Of a DNA stretch of 41,943 nt, positions 1,858-25,916 are shown piece after piece (the first letter of the stretch is position 1; every line of letters begins with the position of its first letter). The DNA is from Candidatus Gottesmanbacteria bacterium. GTDB taxonomy: Bacteria; Patescibacteriota; Microgenomatia; UBA10105; UBA927. Both the position numbers and the translations under genes were made by a program. The notes beneath the pieces were generated by a model. It worked only from the letters and a program-made list of their open reading frames with translations. It was not told the DNA's origin and did no database searches. The stretch spans positions 1 to 41,943 of the forward strand of contig JACQHE010000039.1 in the NCBI GenBank assembly GCA_016199185.1, read 5' to 3'.

Positions 1858-4001
1858 AACGATCGTTTTTTAGGAGAGGCAGGCGGCGGTACAAGAGGCG
1901 CTCGCCCTTTCACTTCAAACTCAAACAGCAGACGGTGTATACCGTGGGCGCTATCTGGCTCTGGTTGTTTGCGGCAGTCGTAACGTTTTCCTTTTCCGGT
2001 GAAGGGGCGGTGCTTATGGCGCTTCGCGACGCCCTTACCGCGCACGTCGGCTGGATCATGTACCTCCTGCCGCCGTTTTTGGTTTCGGCGAGCTTTCTCT
2101 TCTTTAAGGTAAAAAGCGACATCGGCAAGCCTAATGTGCCGATGGGGTTGGGGCTCATGCTCGTGTCCCTGGCAACTCTTACCCGGGCCGGGGATGTGGG
2201 CGTCCTATTCTGGTCGGTCCTATCCGCGGCAATTGCGCCGGAAGGCGCCATTGTGGTGGCGCTGGGAATCTTTATGATGAGCCTCATGGTGCTTTTTAAT
2301 GCCTCACTTGACCGGGTGATGAACTTTCTTTTTCTGGGCGTGCAGGCGCTGTTTGAGTGGGCAAATAGCATCCTTGAGGCAGTCACCGGGAAGTCAAACA
2401 AACCATTGTATGGACCAGAAGTGAAACCGATCCTTAAAATCAAGGGCGTTGACGAGGGCAAGGCGCTTGCCAAAGCGCCGATTGCTCCGCCGCCGGTTCC
2501 GGTCAAATCAGAGCTGAAGATTCAAAGTCCCATGACGAATGCGCCGGACGGCTCGGCAATATGGGAGTACCCGCCGCTGTCGCTTCTGTCTGACGGCCCG
2601 AGCGGCAAAGCAGACCGGGGAGACGTGCGCGACAATGCCCAAATTATTGAGAAAACGTTGGATGGGTTTGGCATAAAGGCAGATGTCGTGGAAGTGAACA
2701 AAGGGCCTGCGGTTACGCAATATGCGCTTGAGATTGCCTTGGGCACGAAAGTATCCAAAATCACCGCGTTATCCAGTGACCTGGCCCTGGCTTTGGCCGC
2801 TCCCACCGGCCAGGTAAGGATCGAAGCGCCGATTCCGGGAAGAAAGCTGGTCGGCATAGAGATACCCAATCGCGGTTTGGAGTTTGTAACGCTTAAAAAT
2901 ATGCTCGGATCCGACACGATGCGTAAATCCAAGAGTAAATTGACGGTTGCTCTGGGGCTTGATGTGTCCGGAAGTCCCGTGATAGCTGATATCGGGAAAA
3001 TGCCTCATGTCCTGGTTGCCGGTACGACGGGCTCGGGAAAATCTGTCCTTATTAATTCATGGATCTGCTCGCTTCTGTTTCGTACGACCCCGCAGGAAGT
3101 GCGCCTCATTATGGTGGATCCCAAAAGAGTGGAACTTGCCGGTTATAACGGCATCCCGCATCTGTTGACTCCGGTTATCGTGGAGCCGGATAAGATTCTC
3201 TCCTCGCTTCGCTGGGCGATGGGAGAAATGGAAAACCGTTATAAACAGTTTGCTCAAGTCGGAGTGAGAAATATCGATGGGTTCAATGAACTTTCCGGCT
3301 TTCAGGCAATTCCATATATCGTCATTTTTGTCGATGAACTGGCAGATCTGATGGCGTACGCGCCGGTTGAGGTAGAGGACAGCATCTGCCGATTGGCGCA
3401 GATGGCCAGAGCAACCGGCATCCATCTGGTGGTATCCACGCAGCGGCCGTCTGTTGACGTCATTACGGGACTTATCAAAGCCAATATACCGGCAAGGATC
3501 GCATTTAACGTTTCCTCCATGGTGGACTCACGGGTGATCATCGACATGCCCGGTGCCGAGAAGATGTTGGGCCGCGGAGACATGCTTTACGTCCCGCCGG
3601 ATCAGGCCAAACCCAGCCGCATCCAGGGCACGTTCGTCTCCGAGGTTGAGGTCAATAAAGTCGTGGAGTTTCTGCGTACGAAGAACGTTCCCGTCGAGTA
3701 TACGGAAGAAGTGACGAGCCTCTCCGTGCCGGTGGGCGGCAAGAAAGGGATGATGGGCACCGTAGGCGGCGACGGGCACGATCACCTGTTTGAAGACGCT
3801 ATCCGGCTCGTGTGCCAGTATGATAAAGCCAGCGCGTCGCTTCTGCAGCGCCGGCTTTCGATCGGCTACGCGCGGGCGGCACGCATCCTGGATCAGCTGG
3901 AAGCCTCCGGCATCATTGGACCGGGGGAAGGCAGCAAACCCCGTGACGTGCTTATGAAAAATGCGGAAGAGTACCTTTCGCAGCAAGCACAACAGCAATG
4001 A
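1854..4001 (+). CDS. ftsK: DNA translocase FtsK/SpoIIIE
   Basis: 715 aa with N-terminal TM helices. Walker A is GTTGSGKS and Walker B is IVIFVDELADL. C-terminal gamma winged-helix reads LLQRRLSIGYARAARILDQLEASGIIGP. ATGA overlap with the upstream stop. Confidence 0.95.
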   Translation: MKRSFFRRGRRRYKRRSPFHFKLKQQTVYTVGAIWLWLFAAVVTFSFSGEGAVLMALRDALTAHVGWIMYLLPPFLVSASFLFFKVKSDIGKPNVPMGLGLMLVSLATLTRAGDVGVLFWSVLSAAIAPEGAIVVALGIFMMSLMVLFNASLDRVMNFLFLGVQALFEWANSILEAVTGKSNKPLYGPEVKPILKIKGVDEGKALAKAPIAPPPVPVKSELKIQSPMTNAPDGSAIWEYPPLSLLSDGPSGKADRGDVRDNAQIIEKTLDGFGIKADVVEVNKGPAVTQYALEIALGTKVSKITALSSDLALALAAPTGQVRIEAPIPGRKLVGIEIPNRGLEFVTLKNMLGSDTMRKSKSKLTVALGLDVSGSPVIADIGKMPHVLVAGTTGSGKSVLINSWICSLLFRTTPQEVRLIMVDPKRVELAGYNGIPHLLTPVIVEPDKILSSLRWAMGEMENRYKQFAQVGVRNIDGFNELSGFQAIPYIVIFVDELADLMAYAPVEVEDSICRLAQMARATGIHLVVSTQRPSVDVITGLIKANIPARIAFNVSSMVDSRVIIDMPGAEKMLGRGDMLYVPPDQAKPSRIQGTFVSEVEVNKVVEFLRTKNVPVEYTEEVTSLSVPVGGKKGMMGTVGGDGHDHLFEDAIRLVCQYDKASASLLQRRLSIGYARAARILDQLEASGIIGPGEGSKPRDVLMKNAEEYLSQQAQQQ

Positions 4002-4654
4002 AAACCGTCGGTTCAATTCTTCGAGAAGCCAGAGAGGCAAAACATGTTACGTTTGCGCAGATTGAGGCTGCTACCAAAATCCGTGCAAAGTTTTTGGAAG
4101 CCATCGAAGCAGACGATTACAGCCTTCTTCCGTCACAAGCGTACGCGAAGGGTTTTGTGAAAAATTATGCAGATTTTGTAGGCATTTCTAGCGCCACAAT
4201 TCTTGCTTTTTTTCGGCGCCAGACCCGGGAGGCGGCCAAATCCGCGATTCTTCCGAAAGGTGTCGCACAGCACCTTAACCGTACGTGGCTCCAGCTGACG
4301 CCGGGGAGATTTCTCATCTTTCTTTTTGTAGGACTGGTCGTCACCTTCCTTATCTATCTGGGTATCCAGTACGGGAAGCTCCGGAATCCTCCGGGGCTCA
4401 CTATCGAAGCGCCCAAAGAGGGCGCCTTCGTCACGGCCAAAAAAGTGGATGTGCTCGGGGCGGCGGACGGGGACGCAACCGTGACGGTCAACGGCATTTC
4501 CGTATTAGTGCGAAGTGACGGCAAGTTCTTTGACCAGGTGACGCTTGAGCCGGGAGGCAATACGATCATCGTAACCGCCACCAGCCGCTACGGCAAGGAA
4601 ACGACCGTGACGAGAAACGTGACGTATCAGGGGGAAGAGTCAAATCCTCGTTGA
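3998..4654 (+). CDS. RodZ-like HTH membrane protein
   Basis: 218 aa. N-terminal XRE/RodZ-type HTH (LREAREAKHVTFAQIEAATKIRAKFLEAIE), one TM helix (FLIFLFVGLVVTFLIYLGI), then a beta-rich C-terminal domain. ATGA overlap with ftsK. Confidence 0.7.
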   Translation: MKTVGSILREAREAKHVTFAQIEAATKIRAKFLEAIEADDYSLLPSQAYAKGFVKNYADFVGISSATILAFFRRQTREAAKSAILPKGVAQHLNRTWLQLTPGRFLIFLFVGLVVTFLIYLGIQYGKLRNPPGLTIEAPKEGAFVTAKKVDVLGAADGDATVTVNGISVLVRSDGKFFDQVTLEPGGNTIIVTATSRYGKETTVTRNVTYQGEESNPR

Positions 4655-10766: not shown

Positions 10767-12476
10767 ATGAAATCAGCGGAAGTGAGACGGAAGTTCATCG
10801 AGTTCTTTAAGGCACGCGGGCATGTGGAGATACCGTCGGCGCCTCTCGTGCCGGAGAACGATCCGACGACACTTTTTACCAGTAGCGGCATGCAGCCGCT
10901 GGTTCCTTATTTATTGGGAGAGCCGCATCCGTTGGGCACAAGAATCGTGGACAGTCAAAAGTGCTTCCGCGCGCAGGACATTGATGAGGTGGGGAACAAC
11001 CGGCACACGACGTTTTTTGAAATGCTGGGCAACTGGTCATTGGGGGATTACTTCAAGAACGAGCAGCTGCCGTGGATCTGGGAGTTTCTGACCAAAGAAT
11101 TGGGACTCCCCAAAGAACGCCTGTACGTCTCCGTTTTGAAGGGAGACGAAGAATCAGTGAACATTTGGAAAGGTCTCGGCGTTCCCAAAGAGAAAATTTT
11201 CTCCTATGGGGTCGACAAAAACTGGTGGAGTAGAGCCGGCGAGCCGGACAAGATGCCAGAGGGCGAGCCGGGCGGCCCGGACAGCGAGGTATTTTATGAA
11301 TTTACGCAAGTGAAACACGATCCAAAATTCGGCAAACAGTGTCATCCGAATTGCGACTGTGGTCGATTTATGGAGATTGCCAATTCCGTGTTTATGCAAT
11401 ATCGAAAACTCGGGGACGGAAGCCTTGAAGAATTACCAAAGAAGAATGTTGATTTCGGCGGAGGACTTGAACGAATGACTGCTGCAGTAAATGATAATCC
11501 TGATGTATTTCAGACAGATTTATTTACGCCGCTTATGGCAGCACTTGGGACGTCGGGAGATGTCCGTGCTCGGCGTATCGTTACGGATCACATTAAAGCT
11601 GCCGTCATGATGATGGCCGATGGCGTTGTCCCCTCCAATAAAATGCAGGGGTATGTCCTTCGCCGTCTTATCCGGCGGGCAATGGTGAAAATGCAACAAC
11701 TCGGGGGTCATGTATCCGATGAGATGATTCATGCGGTCGTAGAAACCTATGGCGGAACAGAGTATTTCAAAACGGTAGGTATACGGTTTATCAAGCAAAC
11801 AATCGCAGAAGAAGATGAAAAATTCGGTAAAACATTGCGGGAAGGGATGAAAAATGTTGAGAACGTATCTCCGTTTGATCTGTATCAAACGTACGGATTT
11901 CCCATAGAGGTAACAGAAGAGTTATATCAGGAAAAAGGTCTCCGTTTAGACAGAGAGCAATTTGAAAAAGAAAAAGAAAAACATCAGGAGCTTTCCCGGA
12001 CAGCGGCGGCAGGGATGTTTAAGGGGGGACTAGCAGATAAAAGCGGGGCAACGACCAAACTTCATACCGCGACCCACCTCCTTCACGCGGCACTCCGACA
12101 GATCCTTGGGCCGCACGTCCAACAGAAAGGGAGCAACATCACCGCCGAGCGTCTGCGGTTTGATTTTTCACACCCGGCGAAGCTGACCCCGGAGGAGCTT
12201 GATAAGATTGCAGTACTCGTGAATGAGAACATTAAAGCAGACCTTCAGGTGACTATTGAAGTGATGTCCTACGATGAGGCGATCAAAGTGGGGGCGCTTG
12301 CGTTTTTTGGCGAGCGGTATCCGGAGAAGGTGAAAGTGTATACGATGGGCGCCTTCAGTCGGGAAATCTGCGGCGGGCCGCACGTAACAAACACCGGTGT
12401 GTTGGGATCGTTTCAGATCATCAAAGAAGAATCCGCCGGTAGTGGCGTACGGCGGATCTATGCGACGGTTGCATAA
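10767..12476 (+). CDS. alaS: alanine--tRNA ligase, short form without C-Ala domain
   Basis: Start chosen at MKSAEVRRKFIEFFKARGH. Contains FTSSGMQP and HTTFFEMLGNWSLGDYFK. Editing-domain motifs HTATHLLHAAL and CGGPHV are present. 569 aa. Confidence 0.9.
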   Translation: MKSAEVRRKFIEFFKARGHVEIPSAPLVPENDPTTLFTSSGMQPLVPYLLGEPHPLGTRIVDSQKCFRAQDIDEVGNNRHTTFFEMLGNWSLGDYFKNEQLPWIWEFLTKELGLPKERLYVSVLKGDEESVNIWKGLGVPKEKIFSYGVDKNWWSRAGEPDKMPEGEPGGPDSEVFYEFTQVKHDPKFGKQCHPNCDCGRFMEIANSVFMQYRKLGDGSLEELPKKNVDFGGGLERMTAAVNDNPDVFQTDLFTPLMAALGTSGDVRARRIVTDHIKAAVMMMADGVVPSNKMQGYVLRRLIRRAMVKMQQLGGHVSDEMIHAVVETYGGTEYFKTVGIRFIKQTIAEEDEKFGKTLREGMKNVENVSPFDLYQTYGFPIEVTEELYQEKGLRLDREQFEKEKEKHQELSRTAAAGMFKGGLADKSGATTKLHTATHLLHAALRQILGPHVQQKGSNITAERLRFDFSHPAKLTPEELDKIAVLVNENIKADLQVTIEVMSYDEAIKVGALAFFGERYPEKVKVYTMGAFSREICGGPHVTNTGVLGSFQIIKEESAGSGVRRIYATVA

Positions 12477-12494
12477 ATGATACAATGAAGAGTG

Positions 12495-14714
12495 ATGAAA
12501 CTGCCGGACGCCTTTCATCAGTTTCTTCATAAAACCCCGCAGCGCGAAGAGGCGTATCTTTCGCTCGTCCTGCAGGCTGGGGCCGTGCAGGCCGCAGTAT
12601 GGACGCTCTCCTCTGGCAAAAAAGCCCGCATCGGGGAGGCGGCGCATGAACGCGTGGAAAGCGACCCCTCGGGAAGACTCGGGGCAAGCTCCTGGGATAA
12701 ACGGTTGGAAGCATGTGACCGCGCGATTGCAAAGATTGCCCAAAAAGCGCTCCGGGACGATTTTGAAAAAGTGGTGCTGGGCCTTCCCGCCTATTACCTT
12801 ACCCCGGATGACGATATTCATGAAGACTGCCGCGGGCACATCAAGACCCTCACGAGTGAGCTCGAGCTTACCCCCATCGGCTTCGTCCCTATCCACCAGG
12901 CGATCGTCCACCACATCAAGGAAGAAGAGGGCGTGCCGCCCAGCGTCATACTCCTGGAGGTAGGCCCCCAGAACACGACGGTGATCGTTTATAAGGTTGG
13001 GGCCATCGTGGGCCGGGAGCAAATCGCCAATGATGATATCGTGCCGCAACTGGAGCGGACGCTTAAAGGTCTCAAGGAGCTTGAGGTGCTGCCCTCCAGA
13101 GTTCTCCTTTATGGATCGGATGAGACGGCGATAGAAGCGTATAAACGAGACCTCCTCAAACACCCCTGGCCCACGCGGGCGAACTTTCTCCACTACCCCA
13201 AGATCGAGCTTCTGCCAACCCTCGCGCTTGCCGGTGCCGTGTCGCTTGCCGGAGCGAGCGAGCTTGCTGGACAGGTGGGAGAAGCTGCAACTTCTGTCAT
13301 TCCGGCCAAGCCTGCCCCAGCGGAGGCTGGGGAGCCGGAATCCAGAGAAAAAGAAGAAGAGCCTGCCGTTGACCAAAACGTCGTGGAGGTGCCGCCGGAG
13401 ACGCTCGGGTTCCGGCGGGATGTGGATGTTTTGGAAAAACCTCAGGAGGTAACTCCCCCCACCCCACTCTTGAAACAAGAGGGGGAGAAGGGGAAGGGAG
13501 AGGAGATCAGAGAAACGCTTACGCGCTTCATTTCAGGTGTAAAGCTTCCGAGGGTTCGGGCAGTCGCACTTCCTAAAACCGGACTTTTTGTCCTTTTCAT
13601 TGTTGTCTTTCTCATTGGCGCAGGGTGGTGGCTTACCTACTGGGTGCTTCCCAAAGCGAGCATCACCATCCTTCAGCTGCCGCATGTACTTTCCGAATCT
13701 TCTTCTATGACGGTCAATCCTACGGCTACCGTCGTGGACGCTGCAACGAAAACCGTGCCCGGCAGGAAGCAGGAAAAGACGGTAAGCGGCGAGAAAACCA
13801 CAGCCGTCACCGGCCAGAAAGACATCGGTGATCCGGCCCGGGGCACCGTGACGGTCTACAACAAATCGCCCACGAGTAAGCAACTCAAGAAAGGCGCCGT
13901 GCTGACCGCCGGTTCCTTATCCTTCACACTGGATAGCGACGTTTCCATCGCCTCCGCAAGCGAAAGCGTCGGGTCCATCACGTTCGGCAAGGCTAATGCG
14001 GCGATCACCGCCGCTAAACTTGGGTCCCAGAGCAATCTGCCGGCAAGTACGGAGTTTAGCTTGAAAGATACGTCCACGAGCGTCATAGCGGGGAGAAATG
14101 ATGCGGCCCTGACCGGGGGGACGAGCAAGGTGGTGAGGGTTGTTTCCCGGGCAGATCAAAGCGCATTGGTGGACGCGCTAACCGGCGAGCTCATTGACAA
14201 AGCCAAGGGTGAGCTTGAAGCAAGCGTGGGTGGAGCAGAGCGGCTCATCGATGAAACCATCAAAACCACGGTGACGAATAAGAAATTTGATCAAGAGCTG
14301 GACCAGGAGTCCAACGAGCTTCACGGCAGTATCACCGTGACCATCACCGGCATTTCCTACAGTGAAAACGACATTGCATCGCTGTTTGCTGATCTGGTGG
14401 CAGCGAAAGTGCCGGCGGGGTACACGCTTCGGGAGGGTGGGGCACACGTAAAAGCTTTTCAAGTGAAGGTTCAAAAAGACGGAAGCATTACGCTTACTAT
14501 CGAGTACCAAGGTCAGGCGCTGCCAACGTTTGATACGGCTGCCATTGGGTCTGGGCTTGCCGGCAAAACATTTGCCCAGGCGCAGGAAGACATCAAGACG
14601 GTAAGCGGCGTGGGTGGCGTGGAGTTTGGGTCAGTCTCGTGGTCGCTGTGGGGGGGCACCACGTTTCCGGCAAATGCAAAAAACATTACCGTCTCCGTGG
14701 CCGTGCTTGAGTAG
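12495..14714 (+). CDS. large bitopic protein: degenerate actin-fold N-domain, PE-rich linker, LPKTG + TM helix, beta-rich extracytoplasmic domain
   Basis: 739/740 aa (GTG 12492 or ATG 12495). TACAAT at 12481-12486. LPKTG at nt 13569-13583 followed by LFVLFIVVFLIGAGWWLTYWVL. The C-terminal half is rich in S/T/A/G/V. It resembles proteins I recall being annotated baseplate J-like in CPR genomes (weak recollection). Confidence 0.7.
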   Translation: MKLPDAFHQFLHKTPQREEAYLSLVLQAGAVQAAVWTLSSGKKARIGEAAHERVESDPSGRLGASSWDKRLEACDRAIAKIAQKALRDDFEKVVLGLPAYYLTPDDDIHEDCRGHIKTLTSELELTPIGFVPIHQAIVHHIKEEEGVPPSVILLEVGPQNTTVIVYKVGAIVGREQIANDDIVPQLERTLKGLKELEVLPSRVLLYGSDETAIEAYKRDLLKHPWPTRANFLHYPKIELLPTLALAGAVSLAGASELAGQVGEAATSVIPAKPAPAEAGEPESREKEEEPAVDQNVVEVPPETLGFRRDVDVLEKPQEVTPPTPLLKQEGEKGKGEEIRETLTRFISGVKLPRVRAVALPKTGLFVLFIVVFLIGAGWWLTYWVLPKASITILQLPHVLSESSSMTVNPTATVVDAATKTVPGRKQEKTVSGEKTTAVTGQKDIGDPARGTVTVYNKSPTSKQLKKGAVLTAGSLSFTLDSDVSIASASESVGSITFGKANAAITAAKLGSQSNLPASTEFSLKDTSTSVIAGRNDAALTGGTSKVVRVVSRADQSALVDALTGELIDKAKGELEASVGGAERLIDETIKTTVTNKKFDQELDQESNELHGSITVTITGISYSENDIASLFADLVAAKVPAGYTLREGGAHVKAFQVKVQKDGSITLTIEYQGQALPTFDTAAIGSGLAGKTFAQAQEDIKTVSGVGGVEFGSVSWSLWGGTTFPANAKNITVSVAVLE

Positions 14715-14715
14715 T

Positions 14716-15495
14716 ATGGCACTGCATCGCTATGTCAAAGCGCCACCGAACACTCGTCCACCGGGACAAGAAATAGCCGGTCCTCCCCCCGTTCCTTCGT
14801 TTCGTCGGCGGACGGCCATCTCGTACTTATTTATCCTTGCGGGACTCGTGATCCTCTCCTGGGCTCTCTGGCCCATTGTGTCATTCACCATATTTACCGC
14901 CCCGACGTACGTCGGGGTCATCTCGCCGGTACCAGACCGGGTGAGCGATACCAACGTAGGGAGCGTGCTTTCGCCGATCGTGAGCGCAGCATCAACGACC
15001 GAGGTCGTAACCGATGGCCCCGATTACACCAACGCCAACGTATGGTTTCCCACAAGTCCCCAGAAAAAGGTAGTATCGGCGGTGACAGCCTACACGCTCT
15101 CTATCCCTAAGCTCGGCATCAACGATGCCCTCGTGATCATCTCCGGCGATGACCTCAATAAAAGCCTCATCCATTACGGCGGCACGGGGCTCCCTGGGCA
15201 GTACGGGACGGCGGTTATCTTCGGCCACTCGGTGCTGCCGCAGTTTTACAATCCCACCAACTACAAAACGATATTTTCGACCCTGCCGACGATGAAGATC
15301 GGGGACGAAATTTTCATCCGTTATGACGGGGTTGAGTACCGCTACGTGGTGTATGAGATGACCGTCACTGAAGCCAATGATTTGTCCCCTCTCGCCCAGC
15401 GGTTTGACGATAGCTACGTGACGCTTATCACCTGTGTGCCGCCGGGGACATATTGGAAGAGGTTGAATGTGAGAGCGAGGCTCGAGCGCATTTAG
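14716..15495 (+). CDS. sortase family transpeptidase
   Basis: Start chosen at MALHRYV, 1 nt after the upstream stop. N-terminal TM anchor, catalytic His (VIFGHSV), TLITC Cys motif and downstream Arg (NVRARL). Confidence 0.85.
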   Translation: MALHRYVKAPPNTRPPGQEIAGPPPVPSFRRRTAISYLFILAGLVILSWALWPIVSFTIFTAPTYVGVISPVPDRVSDTNVGSVLSPIVSAASTTEVVTDGPDYTNANVWFPTSPQKKVVSAVTAYTLSIPKLGINDALVIISGDDLNKSLIHYGGTGLPGQYGTAVIFGHSVLPQFYNPTNYKTIFSTLPTMKIGDEIFIRYDGVEYRYVVYEMTVTEANDLSPLAQRFDDSYVTLITCVPPGTYWKRLNVRARLERI

Positions 15496-15497
15496 CG

Positions 15498-15629
15498 TAA
15501 ATCCTAAGCACTAAATCCTAAACTCTAAACAAATTCAAATGACCAAAATTCAAAATATAAAACAGTTTTGAACATTGAGTATTGAGATTTTGATATTGTT
15601 TAGGAATTAGAAATTAGGATTTTGGATTT
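15498..15629. repeat. family-B word-repeat hairpin element, copy 1
   Basis: About 130 bp built of AAATCCTA-type words on the left arm and TAGGATTT-type words on the right arm. It ends in GGATTTTTTT. Closely similar to 16897-17026. Confidence 0.8.
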
Positions 15630-15639
15630 TTTTGCGAAT

Positions 15640-16899
15640 ATGAAAAGCGAACACCGTCAATTAGCAATAGATGCGATCAAAAAGAAACTGACCGGTAAGA
15701 GGCTTTCGTATTACGAGATATTCGCCATCATGGATGAGATTGCCAACCAGCGCCTGGGTCCCGTGCTCACGACCTACTTTGCCGCCGCCGGATTTACCGA
15801 AGGATTTAATGACGAGGAGCTTTTCTTCCTCACGAAAGCCATGGTGGATACCGGTCCCAAGCTTCATTTCAAAGGGATCGTGGCGGATAAACACTCAACC
15901 GGTGGGGTCGCGGGTACGCGGACGACCATGATTCTCGTCCCCATCATCGCCGCCGCGGGCTTTCAGATCCCGAAAACGTCCTCACGCGCCATCACTTCCC
16001 CGGCCGGTACCGCCGATACTATGGAGGTGGTGGCGCCCGTCACGTTTAGTCCGAAGCAAATCGAAGCGTTGGTTGCCCGCGTCGGCGGGTGCATCGTCTG
16101 GGGCGGGCACTTGGGCCTGGCTCCCGCTGATGACGTGATCATCCAAGTAGAGCAGCCTTTGGCGTTTGAATCGTTTGACAAGATCATCGTCTCCATCATG
16201 GCCAAAAAGGTGGCCTCCGGGGCGACCCACTTGGTATTGGACATCCCCGTGGGGCCGACCATGAAGATCCAGCACTTTAAAGACGCCGAGGTAATAGCCA
16301 AGAAGTTTTCGTTCCTTGCCGGCAAGCTCGCCATGAAGGTTATTTTGGATATCAACGAAGCGTTAGAAAACGCCGGTCGGGGTATCGGGCCGGTGTTGGA
16401 GGCCCGCGACGTCTTTGCCGTACTTGCCCAGGATCCGGACCGGCCGCTAGCGCTGGAGGCGAAGACCTTGCGGCTTGCTGGCAAACTCCTGTCGCTTTGT
16501 TTTGGGGATACCAAAGGTAAAGAGGGAACCGACGGCGAAGCGGTGGCGCGCGAGATCCTCGCCTCCGGACAGGCAATGAAAAAAATGCGCGAGATCATCA
16601 AAGCCCAGGGCGGCGATCCGGATATCGACATTACGCACGTGACGCCGGGGAAGTTCCGCCATGAAGTGGGAAGTCCGCGCGCCGGTCGGGTAAGCCGCAT
16701 CGACAACCGGCAGATCACGGTGGTATGCCGGATTCTGGGGTGCCCCACGGACAAAAAAGCCGGGATGTACCTCAACCGCAAGCTCGAAGAGTCGGTGGAC
16801 AAAGGTGATATACTATGTACGCTCTACAGTTCGGACAAATGGAGACTGCAAGAGGCAGTGGAGACGATGAAGAATGTGCCGGTGTACACTATTGAATAA
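15640..16899 (+). CDS. AMP/thymidine phosphorylase family protein (archaeal DeoA-like core, no N-terminal extra domain)
   Basis: ATG at 15640 preferred over the TTG at 15622. Contains DKHSTGGVAG and IPKTSSRAITSPAGTADTMEV, glycosyltransferase family 3 motifs. Confidence 0.85.
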   Translation: MKSEHRQLAIDAIKKKLTGKRLSYYEIFAIMDEIANQRLGPVLTTYFAAAGFTEGFNDEELFFLTKAMVDTGPKLHFKGIVADKHSTGGVAGTRTTMILVPIIAAAGFQIPKTSSRAITSPAGTADTMEVVAPVTFSPKQIEALVARVGGCIVWGGHLGLAPADDVIIQVEQPLAFESFDKIIVSIMAKKVASGATHLVLDIPVGPTMKIQHFKDAEVIAKKFSFLAGKLAMKVILDINEALENAGRGIGPVLEARDVFAVLAQDPDRPLALEAKTLRLAGKLLSLCFGDTKGKEGTDGEAVAREILASGQAMKKMREIIKAQGGDPDIDITHVTPGKFRHEVGSPRAGRVSRIDNRQITVVCRILGCPTDKKAGMYLNRKLEESVDKGDILCTLYSSDKWRLQEAVETMKNVPVYTIE

Positions 16900-17026: not shown

Positions 17027-17218
17027 ATGTTTAAGAATATCATAGCTCCTGTGCAAGCGTGGCTTCTGTCGCAAGGGAAGTGCGTGGGATGCGGCAGACT
17101 GCTCTCGAAAAAATCAGGGAAAGGTCTTGTGCGGGTGACCTGTCATTGCGGCCGCGTATATATGTACGACAGTGGGGGTGGCTCCTTCCGTCGTGCGACA
17201 CTTGATGAAATCAAATAA
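17027..17218 (+). CDS. small zinc-ribbon protein
   Basis: 63 aa with CVGC ... CHC. It overlaps the mltG start by 14 nt. Confidence 0.45.
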   Translation: MFKNIIAPVQAWLLSQGKCVGCGRLLSKKSGKGLVRVTCHCGRVYMYDSGGGSFRRATLDEIK

Positions 17219-18185
17219 ACCTTATCCGACGCGCTTTTTCCTCCTCCTGGCTGTGGCTGTGGCCCTCGTTGCTGCCGGCTGGCTCTGGTGGCGCGATGCG
17301 ATTTCCGCGGTCAACCCGGGGGACAGCTCGCCGCAGATTTTTGTCGTCAAGCGTGGCGAGGGGGTCAAAAGCATTGCCGGGAGGCTTGCGATGGTCGGCT
17401 TGATCCGAAGTCCGACGGGATTTTACATCCTCGTTAAGCTCATGGGACTCGAGCGCGATCTGCAGGCGGGTGATTTTCGGCTCAATCCGGCCATGGATGC
17501 CGGGAGTGTCGCACGGGAGCTTACGCATGGGACGCTGGACGTGTGGGTGACCACGCTTGAAGGGTGGAGAGTGGAGGAAATAGCTGCAAAACTCACGAAA
17601 GAGCTGGATATTCCTGAAAGCGAGTTTGTCAAAGTCGCCCGTGAAGGGTACATGTTTCCGGATACCTACCTCATTCCCCGTGACGCGACCGTAGGAGCGG
17701 TGGCAGCGCTTTTTACCGCTACATTTGATAAGAAAGTTGATGAAGCAATGCGCGCGGATGCCAAGAAAACCGGATTAACGTTTCCGGAAGTAATGACGCT
17801 TGCCTCAATCGTCGAGCGGGAGGGAAGAACGAATGATGACCGGCCGGTGATTGCAGGAATTCTTCTCAAACGTTTGAAAGCCGATTGGCCACTCCAGGCG
17901 GATGCGACCCTCCAGTACGCGCTCGGGTATCAGACGGGGGAGAAGACGTGGTGGAAGAAATCATTATATGAGGAGGACAAAAAGGTGAAGTCCCCGTACA
18001 ATACGTACACCAATCCGGGACTGCCGCCCGGGCCGATTGCCAATCCGGGCCTTTCGGCTATCAAAGCCGTGATTTATCCCAAGGAATCCGATTACTGGTA
18101 TTACCTCCATGATCCCGAAGGCGTCGTGCATTACGCCAAGACGCTCGCGGAGCATAATAGCAACATCGCCAAGTACCTTCGATAA
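17205..18185 (+). CDS. mltG: endolytic murein transglycosylase MltG/YceG
   Basis: Start chosen at MKSNKPY followed by a TM helix. Contains ASIVEREG, LQADATLQYALG and YNTYTNPGLPPGPIANPG. Confidence 0.9.
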   Translation: MKSNKPYPTRFFLLLAVAVALVAAGWLWWRDAISAVNPGDSSPQIFVVKRGEGVKSIAGRLAMVGLIRSPTGFYILVKLMGLERDLQAGDFRLNPAMDAGSVARELTHGTLDVWVTTLEGWRVEEIAAKLTKELDIPESEFVKVAREGYMFPDTYLIPRDATVGAVAALFTATFDKKVDEAMRADAKKTGLTFPEVMTLASIVEREGRTNDDRPVIAGILLKRLKADWPLQADATLQYALGYQTGEKTWWKKSLYEEDKKVKSPYNTYTNPGLPPGPIANPGLSAIKAVIYPKESDYWYYLHDPEGVVHYAKTLAEHNSNIAKYLR

Positions 18186-19937: not shown

Positions 19938-19984
19938 CACCCCCTACATTTTGGCCGCAGAGGGGTATACAATAGGGCAGAATG
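19938..19984 (+). repeat. promoter-like direct repeat, copy 1 (ends in ATG)
   Basis: CACCCCCTACATTTTGGCCGCAGAGGGGTATACAATAGGGCAGAATG. It differs from 20738-20785 by one C indel and one G/A. Confidence 0.85.
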
Positions 19985-19995
19985 CTTCAAAATCT

Positions 19996-20652
19996 ATGGC
20001 ATATATTTTCCTCGATGAGAGCGGGGACTTAGGTTTTACTTCTGGGAAGAAGAACTCCGACTATTTTGTCATCACATTTATAGCCTGTGAAGACAAACGG
20101 GCGCTTGAGAAAGTGGTAAAAAATGTTCATCGATCTCTCCGGAAAAAGATCAAACGATTATCAGGTGGCGTACTTCATTGTTACAAGGAGAAGCCGAAAA
20201 CCCGCAGAAAAATGCTGTCGATAGTATCAGGTCTTGAGATTTCTGTAATGACGGTCTGTTTAAATAAGAGTCGTGTCCATACAAACCTCAAAGAAGAAAA
20301 ACACCTATTATATAACTACGTTGCCAATATCCTTCTTGATAGAATTTTGACCAAGAAACTTGTTAGTACGAGCGGAAAAGTTACGCTCATCGCTTCCAAG
20401 CGGGAAACCAATAGATTCTTAAACGAAAATTTTTCCTCTTATTTAGCAGATCAAGCTCGAAGGAATCACAAGATGAATCTGGAAATACTGATTCGGACCC
20501 CATCAGAAGAAAAAGGATTGCAGGCTGCCGATTTTGTCAGCTGGTCAATCTTTAAGAAATATGAAGAAAGTGATGATACCTACTACAAAATGATTAAAAA
20601 GAAGATTGTTGAAGAGAATATGCTTTTCGGCTCCAATACGACAAAACCCTAG
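19996..20652 (+). CDS. DUF3800 domain protein
   Basis: Start chosen at MAYIFLDESGDLGF, the family-typical opening. LQAADFVSW lies near the C-terminus. 218 aa. Confidence 0.75.
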   Translation: MAYIFLDESGDLGFTSGKKNSDYFVITFIACEDKRALEKVVKNVHRSLRKKIKRLSGGVLHCYKEKPKTRRKMLSIVSGLEISVMTVCLNKSRVHTNLKEEKHLLYNYVANILLDRILTKKLVSTSGKVTLIASKRETNRFLNENFSSYLADQARRNHKMNLEILIRTPSEEKGLQAADFVSWSIFKKYEESDDTYYKMIKKKIVEENMLFGSNTTKP

Positions 20653-20737
20653 GCGCTATTTACGAGGAACCATCCGGAACCCCACGTCTAGGGATTTACT
20701 TGTCACCTGTTATTATACACGAACCGTCAAGTCCGTG

Positions 20738-20785
20738 CACCCCCCTACATTTTGACCGCAGAGGGGTATACAATAGGGCAGAATG
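20738..20785 (+). repeat. promoter-like direct repeat, copy 2 (its ATG is the type IIG start codon)
   Basis: CACCCCCCTACATTTTGACCGCAGAGGGGTATACAATAGGGCAGAATG. TACAAT at 20769-20774 lies 8 nt before ATG 20783. Confidence 0.85.
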
Positions 20786-23700
20786 AGTAATTCCTTGCAT
20801 GATATAAAACAGTTGTGGGCGAAGGATAAAGATTACTACCGCAAAGTTGAGGTTGGGACGGGTGTGCAAAGTTTTGTTAAAAAGCTCCTCGAGTCTGAAG
20901 AGATATTTAATCTTAACGAAGGTAAACTATCTACAAATACTCTCATAAGAAAAAACGAATTCATTCAAGAAAAAGATGCGAAAGAGAGGCGGAGAGCTGA
21001 TTTCTATATTTACATTACCCAAGATATCGCCATACCCATCGAGGTCGAGTGTTACGGAAATATCAAGGCGGGAGTTATACAATTACTTAACTACCAAAAA
21101 GATTTCGACAAGCATTATGGAATACTTACTGATGGCTATGAGTGGCGATTCTATAATAACAACGCTTACAAAGCATTCACCTTAGACGACATTTTCGAAC
21201 ATATCGATCCTTTCCTCACTTTTTGGAAGGAATATATCAAACCAGAGTTTTACTATCTTTCATTCTTTGAAAGGACAGGACAACTCGCACTTATTGAAGA
21301 AACAAAACTTCATGTTGAAGACAATCGTCAACTTTTCTTTGAGGATATCACCAAGCTTATTCAGTCGTTTAAGAACAAGCTACAAATTGAGGGGTATCTT
21401 AAAGAAGTAGACAAAAAGACGCGAGAGAAACGAGCAATTGAGCTAACCTATGCCTACGTCATCCAATTTATTCTCTACAAAACATTGGTGGACAATGACT
21501 TCGACGATTTCACTAAAGAATTTGAAACAACCGTTACCAAGATACATGAGTCTCTAAAAGATAAGCGGTACAAGGATATCTTAGGTATTATCGAAGGCAT
21601 CTCGGCTAATATTTCAAGGAATGTCTATCGCCCATTCACTAAAGAGCAGGAGTTTATAAAAGAGAAGATTCAAGAGCTATATCATAGCCTTGAAAATAGC
21701 CTCTCTGACGTTTCCCCATGGCTTGATATCTTCATTTTTATCAAGAAATACAACTACGCTAACGTCAGAAACGAAATTTTTGGTTACATCTATGAAAACT
21801 ATCTAAAGGAACTTTACGAAGAAAGCAAGAAAGGTCAATACTTCACCGATCCGGCAGTCGTTAACTTTATGCTTGACCAAATCGGCTATACCCCAGAAGT
21901 TGTGGCAAGAAGAGCATCACAAGATCCCGATAGCGTCTCCATCATCGACCCCTCTTGTGGTAGCGGTACATTCCTTTACTCAGCAACGGATTCGATAGTC
22001 AAAGCCTTTCAAGGCGATAGTGAAGAAGCTTCCGAAAAGATTGAGAAAGTAGTTACTAATGGTGTTTTCGGACTCGACATTGAAGAGTTCCCTCTTTATT
22101 TGGCTGAGATGAATATCTTGATGCGTATGCTTCCTCTTATCATCAACGAAAAGTACAACAATCCCATTGACAAGAAAATTAAAGTTTTCAAAACAATGGA
22201 TTCAGTCTCTGAGTTTATGGACACCGCACTTAGAAATACTATTAACGATACAAATGTTGAGTTTGAGAAGAACAAGGGTCAGACATCGTTATTCTCGATA
22301 TTTGAGAAAAAGTTGAACCTTGGTTACTCAAGTTATGTTCGTGATGAAGATGACCTGCAGGAAATGAAAACGAGCCTTGAAAATCAGCCTGATGTTCCAA
22401 GACGACGTTTTGACTATGTTATCGGCAATCCACCTTATATTCCATATAACGAATGCGCAAAACAACGTGTGCTTATATTTGAATTGATGAAGCAGGGCAA
22501 GTCAAAATTAAGCGATATATATGGAGTAAATTTGCATAGTACTCCAACTCGACAAAAAAGAAATCCTCCAAAACCAAATTTTTATGCATTTTTCATAGCA
22601 CTTGGATTGGCCTTACTAAAAGATGAAGGCAAATTATGTTTCATTGTTCCTCAAACAATATTGACGGCTGGGGACTTAGATATTATTCGATATCACTTAG
22701 TTAAACTTACGACAATTGAGAAGGTTATTACATTTAGTGGGAAGATGTTTTTAGGGCGTGGGCTTAGACAAAATAAACCTGTTGCTACATCAAGTTTAAT
22801 CTTTGTTGTAACAAGAAAGGTTCCACCAACACTTCATGAAGTTGATATAGTGAATTACTTTGGTTCAGACATAGACATAGAAACTATATTTAGGAACATT
22901 AGAGAAGGAAAAAAAATTAAGAAAAAGAGAATCCTCCAATCAAAGCTGCTCCAAAGTATAGAAAATTGGAATCTAATTAGGTTAGATAAACAAACAATTG
23001 ACTTCTTAGAGGAATATAAAGCTAAAACCAACGATTTAAGTGAATACTACACTCACTCTTTAGCAGATTTTCACTATAAGAGTAACTTCTATTTTGACAT
23101 TGGCTACGAAATCAACGAGAAATTACTTTTACAAGAACCCTCAGTCTATAAATACCCAAAGTTGGACATCAATTTTTCGGTTAAAAAATGGAGAGGTTTT
23201 TGGCCGAACGAAAGAAATAAAAATTCCCGATATTTCATCAAGCTTCTGACCACTAATCAAGGCCATAATTTACTAGATAGTCCCTTCAAAGTATTATGGT
23301 CTTACATCAATCCGAATAAATTCCACTTTTCATCGGAACCTTTGATATGGGCAAGGAATCAAATATGTGCAATTGGTAGCAAAAACAAAGAAGAAATATT
23401 GTATCTTTTTTGTCTGCTCAACTCACCAATTACAAAACTGATTCTTTCATCTTTATTGAGGTCAGAGAATGAAAAGGATTTTTTGATCTCCATCGCTTCA
23501 GTTAAAGGGTTTATTCGTGTACCACGAATAACTGATAACAACAAACACCTCAAAAATTCAGTCATAAGTTTGACCGTAAAGCTCTTGGACTTAGAGAAAT
23601 TAACTCTTGCAGATTTAGTTGACTTCTCAGGGACCTTAAAACAAAAATTTGACAAAGTTAATGTTCAGGATAGCTATCTCGTTTTAGAAAAAGACGGCGA

Positions 23701-23992
23701 GAAGTTAGAGTTGCCAATCAAGAAGGATACATTATTAGTTAGTAAAATTATTGAGGCTCACTACACCAAAAAAGGTCTTGATTTAGAAGGTAAAACGATT
23801 ACCCTGTCGGAACTTGTATCACTACCCGCGATTGACTTTGAGAAACAAAAAAAGATCAAGGATACTATAGATGATTTAGTTTTTTGTCTCTATTTCAATA
23901 TAGATATACCGAAAAATAAAGTCACCGACGTAAAATTTATTAAATCCAGCTGCGAGAAGAATAAGTTTTATAAACTAGTAAACCATGAATAA
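20783..23992 (+). CDS. type IIG restriction-modification enzyme (PD-(D/E)xK N-domain + gamma-class N6-adenine methyltransferase + C-terminal specificity region)
   Basis: 1069 aa. N-terminal ADFYIY...IPIEVEC...QLLNY...GILTDGYEWRFY. MTase motif I IIDPSCGSGTFLYSA and motif IV VIGNPPYIPY. Strongly AT-rich. Confidence 0.85.
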   Translation: MSNSLHDIKQLWAKDKDYYRKVEVGTGVQSFVKKLLESEEIFNLNEGKLSTNTLIRKNEFIQEKDAKERRRADFYIYITQDIAIPIEVECYGNIKAGVIQLLNYQKDFDKHYGILTDGYEWRFYNNNAYKAFTLDDIFEHIDPFLTFWKEYIKPEFYYLSFFERTGQLALIEETKLHVEDNRQLFFEDITKLIQSFKNKLQIEGYLKEVDKKTREKRAIELTYAYVIQFILYKTLVDNDFDDFTKEFETTVTKIHESLKDKRYKDILGIIEGISANISRNVYRPFTKEQEFIKEKIQELYHSLENSLSDVSPWLDIFIFIKKYNYANVRNEIFGYIYENYLKELYEESKKGQYFTDPAVVNFMLDQIGYTPEVVARRASQDPDSVSIIDPSCGSGTFLYSATDSIVKAFQGDSEEASEKIEKVVTNGVFGLDIEEFPLYLAEMNILMRMLPLIINEKYNNPIDKKIKVFKTMDSVSEFMDTALRNTINDTNVEFEKNKGQTSLFSIFEKKLNLGYSSYVRDEDDLQEMKTSLENQPDVPRRRFDYVIGNPPYIPYNECAKQRVLIFELMKQGKSKLSDIYGVNLHSTPTRQKRNPPKPNFYAFFIALGLALLKDEGKLCFIVPQTILTAGDLDIIRYHLVKLTTIEKVITFSGKMFLGRGLRQNKPVATSSLIFVVTRKVPPTLHEVDIVNYFGSDIDIETIFRNIREGKKIKKKRILQSKLLQSIENWNLIRLDKQTIDFLEEYKAKTNDLSEYYTHSLADFHYKSNFYFDIGYEINEKLLLQEPSVYKYPKLDINFSVKKWRGFWPNERNKNSRYFIKLLTTNQGHNLLDSPFKVLWSYINPNKFHFSSEPLIWARNQICAIGSKNKEEILYLFCLLNSPITKLILSSLLRSENEKDFLISIASVKGFIRVPRITDNNKHLKNSVISLTVKLLDLEKLTLADLVDFSGTLKQKFDKVNVQDSYLVLEKDGEKLELPIKKDTLLVSKIIEAHYTKKGLDLEGKTITLSELVSLPAIDFEKQKKIKDTIDDLVFCLYFNIDIPKNKVTDVKFIKSSCEKNKFYKLVNHE

Positions 23993-23998
23993 TATTTA

Positions 23999-24018
23999 TT
24001 CCCCTATTTAGAGGGGAA
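23999..24018 (+). terminator. hairpin after the type IIG gene
   Basis: TTCCCCT-ATTTAG-AGGGGAA begins 7 nt after the stop codon. No clear T-run follows. Confidence 0.4.
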
Positions 24019-24120
24019 CTAGCTTTACTAATAGAAATGTTAGATTTTATGTTTGAAGCACAATTTAGAAAAATCAGCAAAGGTTGAATAATAGGATTAG
24101 ACATCGGCGTGTGTATTTGT

Positions 24121-24711: not shown

Positions 24712-24728
24712 ATAAAGCAATCCAACAT

Positions 24729-24935
24729 TTGCTGACTAAGCTATTATTACACCCAACTCAAATTTCAATAACTGAAAAATTAAAAGCCTACCGTGGAGAT
24801 GTTTGGGGACCGGCTCACGCAGGAAATAGCCCGAAGCCAGATGAAAGTGATGCTTTATGGTATTTGGAGTCGATTGTTGCGCAAATAAAATACATCGATC
24901 GTAAAATCAAGCAAGTTGAAGAAAAAGAAAATTAA
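24729..24935 (+). CDS. AbiJ-like protein, C-terminal Abi_C/HEPN part (other frame)
   Basis: This frame is open from 24675. KLKAYRGDVWGPAHAGN...ALWYLESIVAQIKYI fits the Abi_C/HEPN R-x-n-H-G core. There is no independent ATG or SD (the track start is a TTG). Confidence 0.55.
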   Translation: MLTKLLLHPTQISITEKLKAYRGDVWGPAHAGNSPKPDESDALWYLESIVAQIKYIDRKIKQVEEKEN

Positions 24936-24997
24936 CCACCTATGCACATCAACCCTGTGGGTTAGATAGGTTTTTGGATATGTTTTTGCACAAAAGC

Positions 24998-25870: not shown

Positions 25871-25916
25871 TTTTTTGATTCTGTTTTGCATAAAAACATG
25901 GAAGGAGAACGGACGT

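Follow-up and report, generated by a model that had tools for sequence, protein, structure and literature searches.

The locus

The window, the whole 41,943-nucleotide stretch of DNA that was analysed, carries the following genes around the protein considered here:

10773..12476, + strand: alaS (alanyl-tRNA synthetase), conserved upstream neighbour (profile match; neighbour survey)
12495..14714, + strand: gene for a membrane protein combining an ASKHA domain, a TM helix and a baseplate-J-like part (ORF; database protein P0001, 739 aa, 100% identical)
14716..15495, + strand: sortase gene, 259 aa (Pfam Sortase, 4e-21; catalytic residues)
15622..16899, + strand: thymidine/AMP-phosphorylase-family gene, frequent downstream neighbour (profile match; neighbour survey)
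17172..18185, + strand: mltG/yceG (peptidoglycan lytic transglycosylase family), conserved, closing the block on its downstream side (profile match; neighbour survey)

The ORF of the membrane protein occupies 12492..14714 (+) and yields 740 aa from GTG 12492 or 739 aa from ATG 12495, the start used by P0001. Residues are numbered here from the GTG. The end of alaS lies 15 nt before the GTG and 18 nt before the ATG, and the stop codon (TAG, 14712-14714) leaves 1 nt before the sortase ATG at 14716. Within the two proteins the features are these, all on the + strand:

12492..13277: predicted cytoplasmic actin-like (ASKHA) domain, aa 1-262, a minimal two-lobe version (AF2, Foldseek, conservation)
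13278..13568: acidic, Pro-rich, predicted cytoplasmic linker, aa 263-359 (composition)
13377..13436: short linear motif of the linker, N-V-x-x-V-x-P-E-x-L-G-F-x(3-4)-D-x-x-E, aa 296-315 (conservation)
13569..13583: LPKTG, aa 360-364, juxtamembrane, on the predicted cytoplasmic face (family column comparison)
13584..13649: single TM helix, aa 365-386, predicted N-in/C-out (hydropathy, K/R balance)
13650..14711: predicted extracytoplasmic beta-rich ectodomain of baseplate-J-like fold, aa 387-740 (AF2; Foldseek against PDB and BFVD)
13833..14123: Pfam Baseplate_J (PF04865) match, aa 448-544 (22.3 bits, E 9e-5)
14716..14742: conserved, predicted cytoplasmic N-terminal peptide of the sortase, MALHRYVKA (consensus M-x-[LM]-Y-[RQ]-Y-[VI]-K-[AS])
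14818-14886: TM anchor of the sortase, aa 35-57 (sequence)

The first-pass annotation had described the larger protein as an actin-like part, a linker, an LPKTG-TM element and a beta-rich part. This anatomy is upheld by AF2, Foldseek and hydropathy, and the ORF, the LPKTG site, the lone TM helix and the 1-nt spacing to the sortase were all found in the sequence as described. The linker has 20 D/E, 11 K/R and 11 P in aa 263-345, and its short linear motif is retained even in relatives that are only 28% identical.

Topology of the membrane protein

How is the protein disposed with respect to the membrane? The TM segment, LFVLFIVVFLIGAGWWLTYWVL (aa 365-386), starts directly after LPKTG. It is the sole strong hydrophobic segment; the second-best 19-aa hydropathy window averages 1.5 in the family, compared with ~2.4-3 for the TM segment. 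By hydropathy there is no hydrophobic N-terminal segment of the kind expected of a signal peptide, and the AF2 model places the first strands of the ASKHA domain at the N-terminus. K+R average 2.5 over the 15 aa that precede the helix, against 0.9 downstream, and the upstream count is the higher in 82% of 120 members. We conclude that this is a bitopic membrane protein. The hydropathy and the positive-inside rule predict an N-in/C-out topology with LPKTG on the cytoplasmic face, in keeping with the orientation proposed in the first-pass annotation.

Is LPKTG a sorting signal?

The first-pass annotation had suggested that LPKTG might be a signal for sorting or processing, though a misplaced one, while allowing for coincidence. 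Using rough typical amino-acid frequencies, we estimate (by reckoning, not with a tool) that LPxTG is expected about 0.01 times by chance in a protein of 740 aa; measured against this, its presence beside the TM helix looks non-random.

The homologues tell another story. LPxTG stands at the TM-adjacent column in 7 of 120 database homologues, the window's own protein included: LPKTG in six, LPLTG in one. Sorted by relatedness, these are 6 of the 43 homologues with at least 55% identity (one being the window's own) and 1 of the 77 more distant ones. LPxT[GAS] occurs near the TM helix in none of 69 full-length GTDB species representatives and in none of 120 Daviesbacteria-type proteins, although nearly all of these loci retain the adjacent sortase. 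Relatives 73-78% identical read VPKVA, IPKAG, VPKAG, VPKFG, VPKSG or MPKMG. Position 4 of the motif varies freely among T, A, S, M, F, V, G, I and K, with T in 13 of 121 sequences, and carriers of LPxTG are interspersed among nearer relatives that lack it. The local family pattern is thus [LIV]-P-K-x-G with x free, and since this pattern is general to the juxtamembrane stretch, no sortase is needed to explain LPKTG. The alignment indicates that LPKTG is a chance spelling of a variable juxtamembrane stretch and not a sortase signal; it was the annotation's alternative, coincidence, that proved correct.

Could LPKTG nevertheless be a genuine, lineage-specific sortase site, at which a cut between T and G separates or tethers the actin-fold and surface modules? 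An exact LPXTG does abut the only TM helix beside a sortase gene, and the motif is found again in five other relatives (67-74% identical to the window protein). But it is missing from the closest non-identical relatives and from the wider sets of 69 and 120 homologues, and its patchy distribution is that of neutral drift at position 4. There is, moreover, neither a signal peptide nor a C-terminal charged tail, and 376 residues follow the motif. As the motif is predicted to be cytoplasmic, beyond the reach of the extracytoplasmic active site of a sortase, the protein is probably not processed there. We consider a genuine site very improbable. No other C-terminal sorting signal of the LPXTG type was detected in any frame of the window, as the first-pass annotation had also reported, and a search of the window and of ~1 Mb of related loci for an LPXTG donor protein found none.

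The two folded domains

On either side of the membrane the structure predictions are confident. The AF2 model of the ASKHA domain has a pLDDT of 91.2 and, searched with Foldseek, gave 659 PDB matches at E<=1e-3, led by PPX/GppA, PilM, FtsA and EutJ; the best E, 1e-10, was to PPX/GppA, and PilM and FtsA matched at TMq 0.53-0.57. Both RNase-H-like lobes are present. Where the D-x-G of phosphate-1 is expected, at the end of strand 1, the family has an invariant Ser24-Leu25, and the stretch in the place of phosphate-2 (D-x-G-G-G-T expected), aa 152-162, is unconserved, both loops being assigned by position in the predicted strands. The earlier proposal of an actin fold with degenerate phosphate loops is therefore borne out by model, structural matches and family conservation alike. 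By analogy with GspL and PilM, the domain would most likely be a protein-docking module and not an ATPase.

The ectodomain (~355 aa) is modelled with a pLDDT of 92.8 as a beta-rich multidomain fold, beginning with a conserved P-[KHR]-A-[TS]-V-T strand. Over its whole length it matches PDB chains of the baseplates of diffocin (TRI-2), Pa193, A-1(L), phi812 and Mu, and at E<=1e-3 every PDB match is a baseplate J or wedge protein except for a local match to the GlxA beta-barrel. In BFVD there were 26 matches at E<=1e-3, about half of them named baseplate J or wedge and the rest mostly unnamed. The likeness is remote, with TM-scores of ~0.2 that arise from differing inter-domain angles. The Pfam score exceeds the PF04865 cut-off (21.1 bits) by a small margin. 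The matched region carries the signatures GDPA(K/R)GTVT(V/I)YNK and G-x-x-S-N-L-P-x-x-T-E-F, and L-T-G-G-T-S (aa 540-545) straddles its end; these signatures are also where the profile of the family aligns to diffocin TRI-2/CD1371 (E 0.02). Several homologues have a precomputed PF04865 match, and some are named 'baseplate J/gp47 family protein' by NCBI. The models and profiles thus show an ectodomain with the predicted fold, and a weak sequence signature, of protein J of phage and contractile-system baseplates. The structure prediction and Foldseek search of each segment, as the first-pass annotation had proposed, accordingly returned an actin-like N-domain and a baseplate-J-like ectodomain.

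The sortase and the conserved gene pair

The adjoining gene encodes a sortase whose catalytic domain spans aa 128-256. Its catalytic residues, reported earlier as intact, are so: FGHS at aa 169-172 (His171), TLITC at aa 236-240 (Cys240) and KRLNVRARL at aa 248-256 (Arg). His, Cys and Arg are retained across an alignment of 60 homologues, and in Gottesman- and Davies-type sortases alike. The protein passes the general model TIGR01076 (50.1 bits against 39.35), and none of the class-specific NCBIfam sortase models scores above its cut-off, the best being class C with 57.5 of the 160 bits demanded. [quoted passage not shown]

With 1,948 50%-identity clusters at E<=1e-30, the family of the membrane protein is large; all the genomes in which it was seen here belong to Microgenomates/Patescibacteria, and we found no publication describing it. 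Of 75 evaluable loci, 69 have an adjoining sortase gene in the same orientation and 2 more have one within 1.6 kb, and the pair is kept across Gottesman-, Davies- and Woesebacteria and other Microgenomates. Of the co-occurrence with a sortase and with LPxTG that the first-pass annotation proposed to look for in homologues, the gene link thus stands, whereas the motif does not. The gap between the two genes has a median of ~4 nt, and 4-nt overlaps are frequent; stop and start overlap or lie <=5 nt apart in roughly half the loci, which indicates co-translation.

Does this adjacency reflect function? The conserved block is alaS-X-sortase-(phosphorylase)-mltG, X being the membrane protein, and the whole of it is syntenic: alaS is followed by X in 55 of 68 loci, and the sortase by the phosphorylase or mltG in 66 of 69. 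Because of this, functional pairing and inherited gene order are inseparable by adjacency alone.

Proposed role and alternatives

We consider it probable that LPKTG arose by chance and that the bitopic ASKHA-TM-baseplate-J-like protein, linked to the sortase, serves as a transmembrane scaffold and not as a canonical substrate. From gene order and folds, its most likely role would be to organise envelope or surface-protein assembly. It would be expressed together with MltG and the housekeeping-type sortase of the lineage, and would act as the partner of that sortase. A more specific mechanism can be offered as a doubtful conjecture. The two proteins would form a transmembrane module in which the nucleotide-dead actin fold docks the sortase tail M-x-L-Y-R-Y-V-K-A and/or the protein's own linker motif N-V-x-x-V-x-P-E-x-L-G-F, on the pattern of PilM with the N-terminus of PilN or of FtsA with FtsN, and an exapted phage J domain forms an oligomeric outer platform, so positioning sortase-mediated attachment of surface proteins, and perhaps MltG, in cells whose envelope is minimal. 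If true, the module would be without precedent both as a dedicated sortase-positioning scaffold and as a cellular, extracytoplasmic use of the baseplate-J fold.

Might the gene pair instead be a mere legacy of synteny, the protein working independently of the sortase as, for example, a divisome/elongasome scaffold or a pilus/secretion scaffold like GspL or PilM-PilN? All neighbour pairs of the block are about equally conserved, a cytoplasmic actin-like domain, a TM helix and an outer domain do parallel GspL/PilMN, and four loci (L055, L056, L064, L074) retain the protein beside alaS but have lost sortase and mltG from the flank. On the other hand, the short gaps and overlaps point to co-translation, the pair stays together where alaS is inverted (L061, L062, L065, L069, L079) or displaced, and neither the window nor any of the loci profiled has T2SS, T4P or division genes next to the protein. 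We regard this reading as rather unlikely. Nor do we think it probable that the protein is a client of the sortase through some other conserved extracellular feature, whether the post-TM L-P-[KHR]-A-[TS] as a degenerate site releasing the ectodomain or an ectodomain lysine (e.g. in V-T-I-Y-N-K) accepting LPXTG proteins. Pilin lysines are the nucleophiles for class C sortases, and class C is the best, though sub-threshold, match of this sortase. P387 is present in 120 of 121 sequences, A389 and T392 are highly conserved directly outside the membrane, Y456-N457-K458 is nearly invariant and the genes are tightly coupled. But L-P-x-A-[TS] lacks the Thr-Gly/Ala core that is part of the known sortase motifs of classes A-F, and the Pro is lost in L054, L057, L059, L069 and L079, all with an adjacent sortase. 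Were this site cut, moreover, the acyl-enzyme would be left bound to the N-terminal fragment, which is embedded in the membrane. The Pfam Baseplate_J match has GDPAKGTVTIYNK at its start, which makes this stretch a signature of the fold rather than a pilin motif; and no donor for such a lysine was found in the sequence searched.

The Baseplate_J match, with the Foldseek matches to phage and diffocin wedge proteins, also raises the question of whether the gene is a remnant of a prophage or contractile injection system, a baseplate gene that was domesticated but serves no function in the cell. This is hardly credible. The neighbours are alaS, sortase, phosphorylase and mltG, with no sheath, tube or other baseplate genes close by, and tail genes are lacking from the window and the 79 loci profiled. 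The family has no PHROG match. Its chromosomal position is fixed across at least 4 candidate lineages at 28-64% identity with length conserved, and a membrane-anchored protein with its J-like part outside the cell is unlike any baseplate.

An internal, inverted sorting signal would have altered the view of how sortases recognise their substrates, and its failure averts a false lead. What replaces it is a near-ubiquitous Microgenomates sortase whose gene nearly always shows translational coupling to that of a large, uncharacterised membrane protein, with a degenerate actin fold on the inner side of the membrane and a phage-baseplate-like fold on the outer. The predicted architecture is an example of cells reusing a phage structural fold, and a testable candidate for the organisation of surface-protein or envelope assembly in the minimal cells of CPR/Patescibacteria.

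Comparison with known systems

A cell-wall sorting signal consists of motif, hydrophobic segment and basic tail within ~35-40 residues of the C-terminus. The present protein resembles this in that the pentapeptide LPKTG is directly followed by a hydrophobic helix and a sortase gene adjoins. It differs in that the motif is mid-protein, 376 residues before the C-terminus, with K/R upstream of the helix in place of a basic tail after it and no signal peptide, and in that the motif is predicted to be cytoplasmic and is unconserved in homologues that retain the sortase. The neighbour, like sortases of classes A-F, has an N-terminal membrane anchor, a sortase domain, and the His, TLITC Cys and Arg; unlike them it falls far under every class-specific NCBIfam cut-off, and its Gottesman-type members have the conserved cytoplasmic N-terminal peptide MxLYRYVKA.

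With the Baseplate_J proteins (P2 gpJ, Mu gp47, T4 gp6, XkdT, diffocin TRI-2/CD1371) the ectodomain shares a multidomain fold over ~320-430 alignment columns and the signatures A-K-G-T-V-T, G-x-x-S-N-L-P-x-x-x-E-F and L-T-G-G-T-S. Unlike them, it is predicted to be extracytoplasmic, held by a TM anchor and joined in one chain with an actin-fold domain in the cytoplasm; tail and baseplate gene context is lacking, and the similarity is remote (22 bits).

The N-domain shares the two-lobe RNase-H-like fold of FtsA, PilM, MreB and PPX/GppA (Foldseek E down to 1e-10), but the Asp of phosphate-1 is replaced by the invariant Ser and the phosphate-2 loop is unconserved. At ~260 aa, against 350-420 for FtsA and PilM, it is probably too short for a 1C insertion, and its anchor is a true TM helix with a large ectodomain rather than an amphipathic helix. 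No fts or pil genes adjoin it in the loci profiled.

GspL and PilM-PilN offer a parallel in layout, a cytoplasmic actin-like domain, one TM helix and an extracytoplasmic domain, and PilM is among the best structural matches of the N-domain. The actin-like domain of GspL is a docking module that does not bind nucleotide, and the N-terminus of PilN binds PilM; the short, conserved cytoplasmic peptides of the present protein and its sortase are reminiscent of the latter. In contrast to PilN and GspL, the outer domain here is baseplate-J-like and not ferredoxin-like, and the actin-like domain is a minimal one of ~260 aa; secretion or pilus ATPase and platform genes are lacking nearby, and sequence similarity is not detectable.

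The LPKTG motif and its neighbourhood

Does LPKTG in the ASKHA–TM–baseplate-J-like membrane protein, here called fam, act as an internal, misplaced sorting signal for the neighbouring sortase, as the first-pass annotation had proposed? The features that bear on this question, with residues numbered from the GTG at 12492, are as follows.

12492–14714, + strand: fam ORF, 740 aa from GTG
13569–13583, + strand: LPKTG, aa 360–364 of fam
13584–13649, + strand: 22-residue helix LFVLFIVVFLIGAGWWLTYWVL, directly after LPKTG and the sole strongly hydrophobic segment of fam
12168–13478, − strand: 436-aa ORF, in antisense across the end of alaS and fam's first half

If fam starts at the ATG at 12495, as does an identical database protein, it has 739 aa. 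The last base of its TAG stop is 14714, and the sortase starts with an ATG at 14716. The earlier description of this stretch proved correct in each checkable detail (ORF, LPKTG, helix, stop/ATG spacing and sortase residues), and so did the statement that the window holds no other LPXTG substrate: a scan of all six frames of the window returned no further LPXTG-type sorting signal. We read the 436-aa ORF as a shadow ORF, because homologues of the + strand genes number in the hundreds.

Conservation of LPKTG

How is the motif distributed among homologues? When 1.84 billion representative proteins were searched with a profile, 1,948 clusters fell in the family at E ≤ 1e-30, and 8,491 when the threshold was E ≤ 1e-3, the named members coming from Gottesmanbacteria, Daviesbacteria, Woesebacteria and other Microgenomates/Patescibacteria. 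Across 120 full-length homologues the column reads LPKTG in six, the protein of the window itself among them, and LPLTG in one; 13 of 121 sequences have Thr as the fourth residue there. In the closer clade the column is [LIV]-P-K-x-G, and further out there is no recognisable pattern. The six closest non-identical relatives (73–78% identity) have VPKVA, IPKAG, VPKAG, VPKFG, VPKSG and MPKMG, while LPKTG is present in some relatives at 67–74% identity, a patchy distribution that fits neutral drift. No full-length GTDB species representative (of 69) and no Daviesbacteria-type protein (of 120) has LPxT[GAS] near the helix. Other LPxTG-like spellings in homologues (LPVTG around aa 437, LPFTG around aa 538, and LPKTS after the helix) were rejected because each is found in one to three sequences only and each in a different column.

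Nor does fam belong to the class of proteins with cell-wall sorting signals: the features that define the class were tested, and fam has no signal peptide, no near-C-terminal position of the motif and no basic tail after the helix. Homologues without LPxTG were the very observation that the first-pass annotation had named as telling against a sorting or processing signal. We conclude that this reading is refuted and that the motif is a coincidence, the alternative which the same annotation had raised; LPKTG is absent from nearly all homologues.

Membrane topology

Hydropathy and the positive-inside rule together predict that fam is N-in/C-out, with LPKTG at the point where the helix emerges on the cytoplasmic side, because the N-terminus lacks a hydrophobic segment and is part of the ASKHA (actin-like superfamily) fold, and because Lys and Arg are more frequent before the helix. 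Among 120 family members the mean K+R content of the 15 residues before the helix is 2.5, versus 0.9 in the 15 after it, and the count is greater upstream in 82%. The hydropathy and this bias support the earlier prediction that the motif faces the cytoplasm. At that predicted location LPKTG would therefore be beyond the reach of a membrane-anchored sortase, whose active site is extracytoplasmic.

The two domains of fam

The halves of fam were modelled separately by AlphaFold2 from an alignment of 89 family members, both confidently (pLDDT 91.2 for aa 1–274 and 92.8 for aa 384–740). The N-terminal domain is modelled as a minimal two-lobe actin-like fold. Foldseek gives 659 PDB matches to it at E ≤ 1e-3; the lowest E-values belong to PPX/GppA (1e-10), and the best coverage to PilM and FtsA (TMq 0.53–0.57 for these two) and to EutJ. 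An invariant Ser24-Leu25 stands at the place of the phosphate-1 Asp-x-Gly, and the stretch where the phosphate-2 loop is expected is unconserved across the family. The nucleotide loops are degenerate family-wide, so that fam is a member of the ASKHA superfamily by fold but not by the test of its nucleotide loops. An actin-like N-domain with degenerate phosphate loops, recognised at first pass, is thus borne out. The N-domain of one homologue also matches RuvX, at a non-significant E of 0.02. Linkage of alaS and mltG is known in Firmicutes, and the weak match is intriguing because ruvX there stands between these two genes.

The C-terminal domain resembles baseplate J/wedge proteins. Its PDB matches by Foldseek include diffocin TRI-2 (1e-5), Pseudomonas phage Pa193, cyanophage A-1(L), phage phi812 and Mu baseplate chains, and the beta-barrel domain of GlxA also ranks high, as a local match. 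Against BFVD, a viral library, there are 26 matches at E ≤ 1e-3, about half of them named baseplate J/wedge and the remainder mostly unnamed. Pfam Baseplate_J matches aa 448–544 at 22.3 bits, slightly over the cut-off of 21.1, and the family profile aligns with diffocin CD1371 across the same signatures (E 0.02). The similarity is remote, with TM-scores of about 0.2 against baseplate proteins because the domain orientations differ. PHROGs gave no family match for either domain, single-sequence phmmer with fam no match in the PDB, and NCBIfam no meaningful match. The Baseplate_J domain is marginal but consistent, and lies outside any phage context.

The linker between the domains is acidic, proline-rich and variable, except for the motif N-V-x-x-V-x-P-E-x-L-G-F-x(3-4)-D-x-x-E (aa 296–315, window 13377–13436), which is kept down to 28% identity.

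Linkage of fam to the sortase

The 259-aa sortase is recognised by Pfam Sortase (4e-21) and by NCBIfam's general sortase model, yet scores under every class-specific NCBIfam model. FGHS, TLITC and the downstream Arg are all present, in agreement with the first reading of an intact enzyme, and His, Cys and Arg are retained in every complete sortase ORF of the loci compared. These were 79 GTDB-genome loci (the L numbers below) with fam homologues 28–64% identical, profiled with the window's proteins. In 75 of them the sequence extends far enough past fam to judge: in 69 the sortase follows fam directly on the same strand, and in two more an insertion separates the pair, with the sortase still within 1.6 kb. 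Of the suggested co-occurrence of LPxTG–helix and adjacent sortase among homologues, then, the sortase half holds and the LPxTG half does not. The four exceptions, a Daviesbacteria-related subset that also lacks mltG in its flanks, have these genes after fam:

L055:6159–8192: multipass PMT-family glycosyltransferase, ~650–680 aa, with a MecA_N-like region
L056:8178–10187 and L074:8126–10057: ORFs like that of L055 in size and sequence
L064:8201–9064: GDSL hydrolase

The median spacing between the stop of fam and the start of the sortase is ~4 nt, and in many loci the two genes overlap by 4 nt; the pair stays intact in five loci where alaS is inverted (L061, L062, L065, L069 and L079). An apparent fam–sortase fusion (L040:5941–8484) is an artefact, a scaffold gap of N's translated as X. 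Complete genomes with the pair include OY970230.1, OY969569.1 and CP066688.1. The linkage is real. Adjacency alone is no proof of functional pairing, since the entire block alaS–fam–sortase–(nucleoside phosphorylase)–mltG is syntenic (alaS to fam in 55 of 68 loci, sortase to phosphorylase/mltG in 66 of 69). The fam gene is co-transcribed with an intact sortase in this block, which ends at the peptidoglycan enzyme gene mltG, and the two are probably co-translated. Between 10 and 19.6 kb promoter-like sites were fewer than in shuffles and terminator-like sites about as many, so the scan leaves the ends of the operon undefined.

Among the sortases of the window and of L001–L060, those of Gottesman type all start from a strongly conserved stretch predicted to lie in the cytoplasm, M-x-[LM]-Y-[RQ]-Y-[VI]-K-[AS], with basic residues and then the TM anchor after it; the window's version is MALHRYVKA (sortase aa 1–9, window 14716–14742). 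Daviesbacteria-type sortases beside fam have merely 2–10 residues before the helix.

A search for clients of the sortase

Might fam be a client by another route, or is there another substrate nearby? We scanned for [x]P.T[GASN], LAxTG or NPxT[GN] with a C-terminal hydrophobic segment, and for any C-terminally anchored single-pass protein. Neither the window's six frames nor ~1 Mb of the 79 related loci held a sortase substrate or LPXTG donor protein; nothing came up but the ends of EamA-type transporters, antisense frames and a single conserved tail-anchored protein. The latter (~250–310 aa; L040:3214–4059, L041, L042, L044, L045, L047, L048, L051, L052 and L058) lies on the − strand upstream of alaS, has Pro/Thr-rich linkers and no sortase-like motif, and ends in ...SWW(S/T)xEK(I/F)(A/S)Q, a TM helix and HGFFDKR.

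Right after the helix of fam is a conserved, predicted outward-facing stretch, L-P-[KHR]-A-[TS]-V-T. Known sortase motifs have a Thr-Gly/Ala core, which this stretch lacks, and its Pro is lost in five fam members that still have the sortase. The nearly invariant V-T-I-Y-N-K was rejected as a pilin-like lysine motif: it falls where the match to the Baseplate_J profile begins, and is thus a signature of the fold. There is no support for fam as a sortase client by these other routes.

Other genes of the window

The alaS gene (10773–12476) encodes a short AlaRS, 567 aa from an internal ATG, with Pfam matches to the catalytic and second-additional domains only and none to the C-terminal domain. A low-GC island at ~19950–26000 (0.34–0.40, against 0.48–0.58 elsewhere) is probably a defence island that arrived by horizontal transfer. 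Searches of the window for tRNAs and Rfam families gave no match. The island's genes and three near the start of the window are:

19951–20652: DUF3800 (island)
20783–23992: N6_Mtase/Eco57I-type restriction-modification fusion, 1069 aa (island)
24109–24711: AbiJ_NTD4 protein (island)
24974–25870: Bro-N protein (island)
1036–1857: Bro-N protein
1854–4001: FtsK/SpoIIIE
3998–4654: 218-aa protein with HTH_25, the RodZ-type N-terminal domain, and a Glucodextran_B domain; overlaps the end of the FtsK/SpoIIIE gene by 4 nt

A proposed role for fam

The window does encode a conserved but uncharacterised membrane protein of actin-fold/baseplate-J type, coupled to the Microgenomates sortase. According to Méheust et al. 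[quoted passage not shown] In the literature on sortase, baseplate J or actin-like proteins in Patescibacteria/CPR/Microgenomates we found no description of the fam family, and the proteins of a 2026 Pam-pilus preprint are unrelated.

By its predicted topology fam is bitopic, with the degenerate actin-fold domain inside the cell and the baseplate-J-like domain outside. What might such a protein do? Its architecture parallels GspL and PilM–PilN, and for that reason we read fam as most likely a membrane-spanning scaffold in the assembly of the envelope or of surface proteins, one that would partner the sortase and not itself be cut by it. In GspL and PilM–PilN a cytoplasmic actin-like domain is the docking module for a transmembrane assembly; that of GspL is nucleotide-free, and the N-terminus of PilN docks on PilM. 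The actin-fold domain of fam could, by analogy, be a docking site for the N-terminal peptide of the sortase or for the linker motif of fam, the likeness of fam to these systems being one of layout alone.
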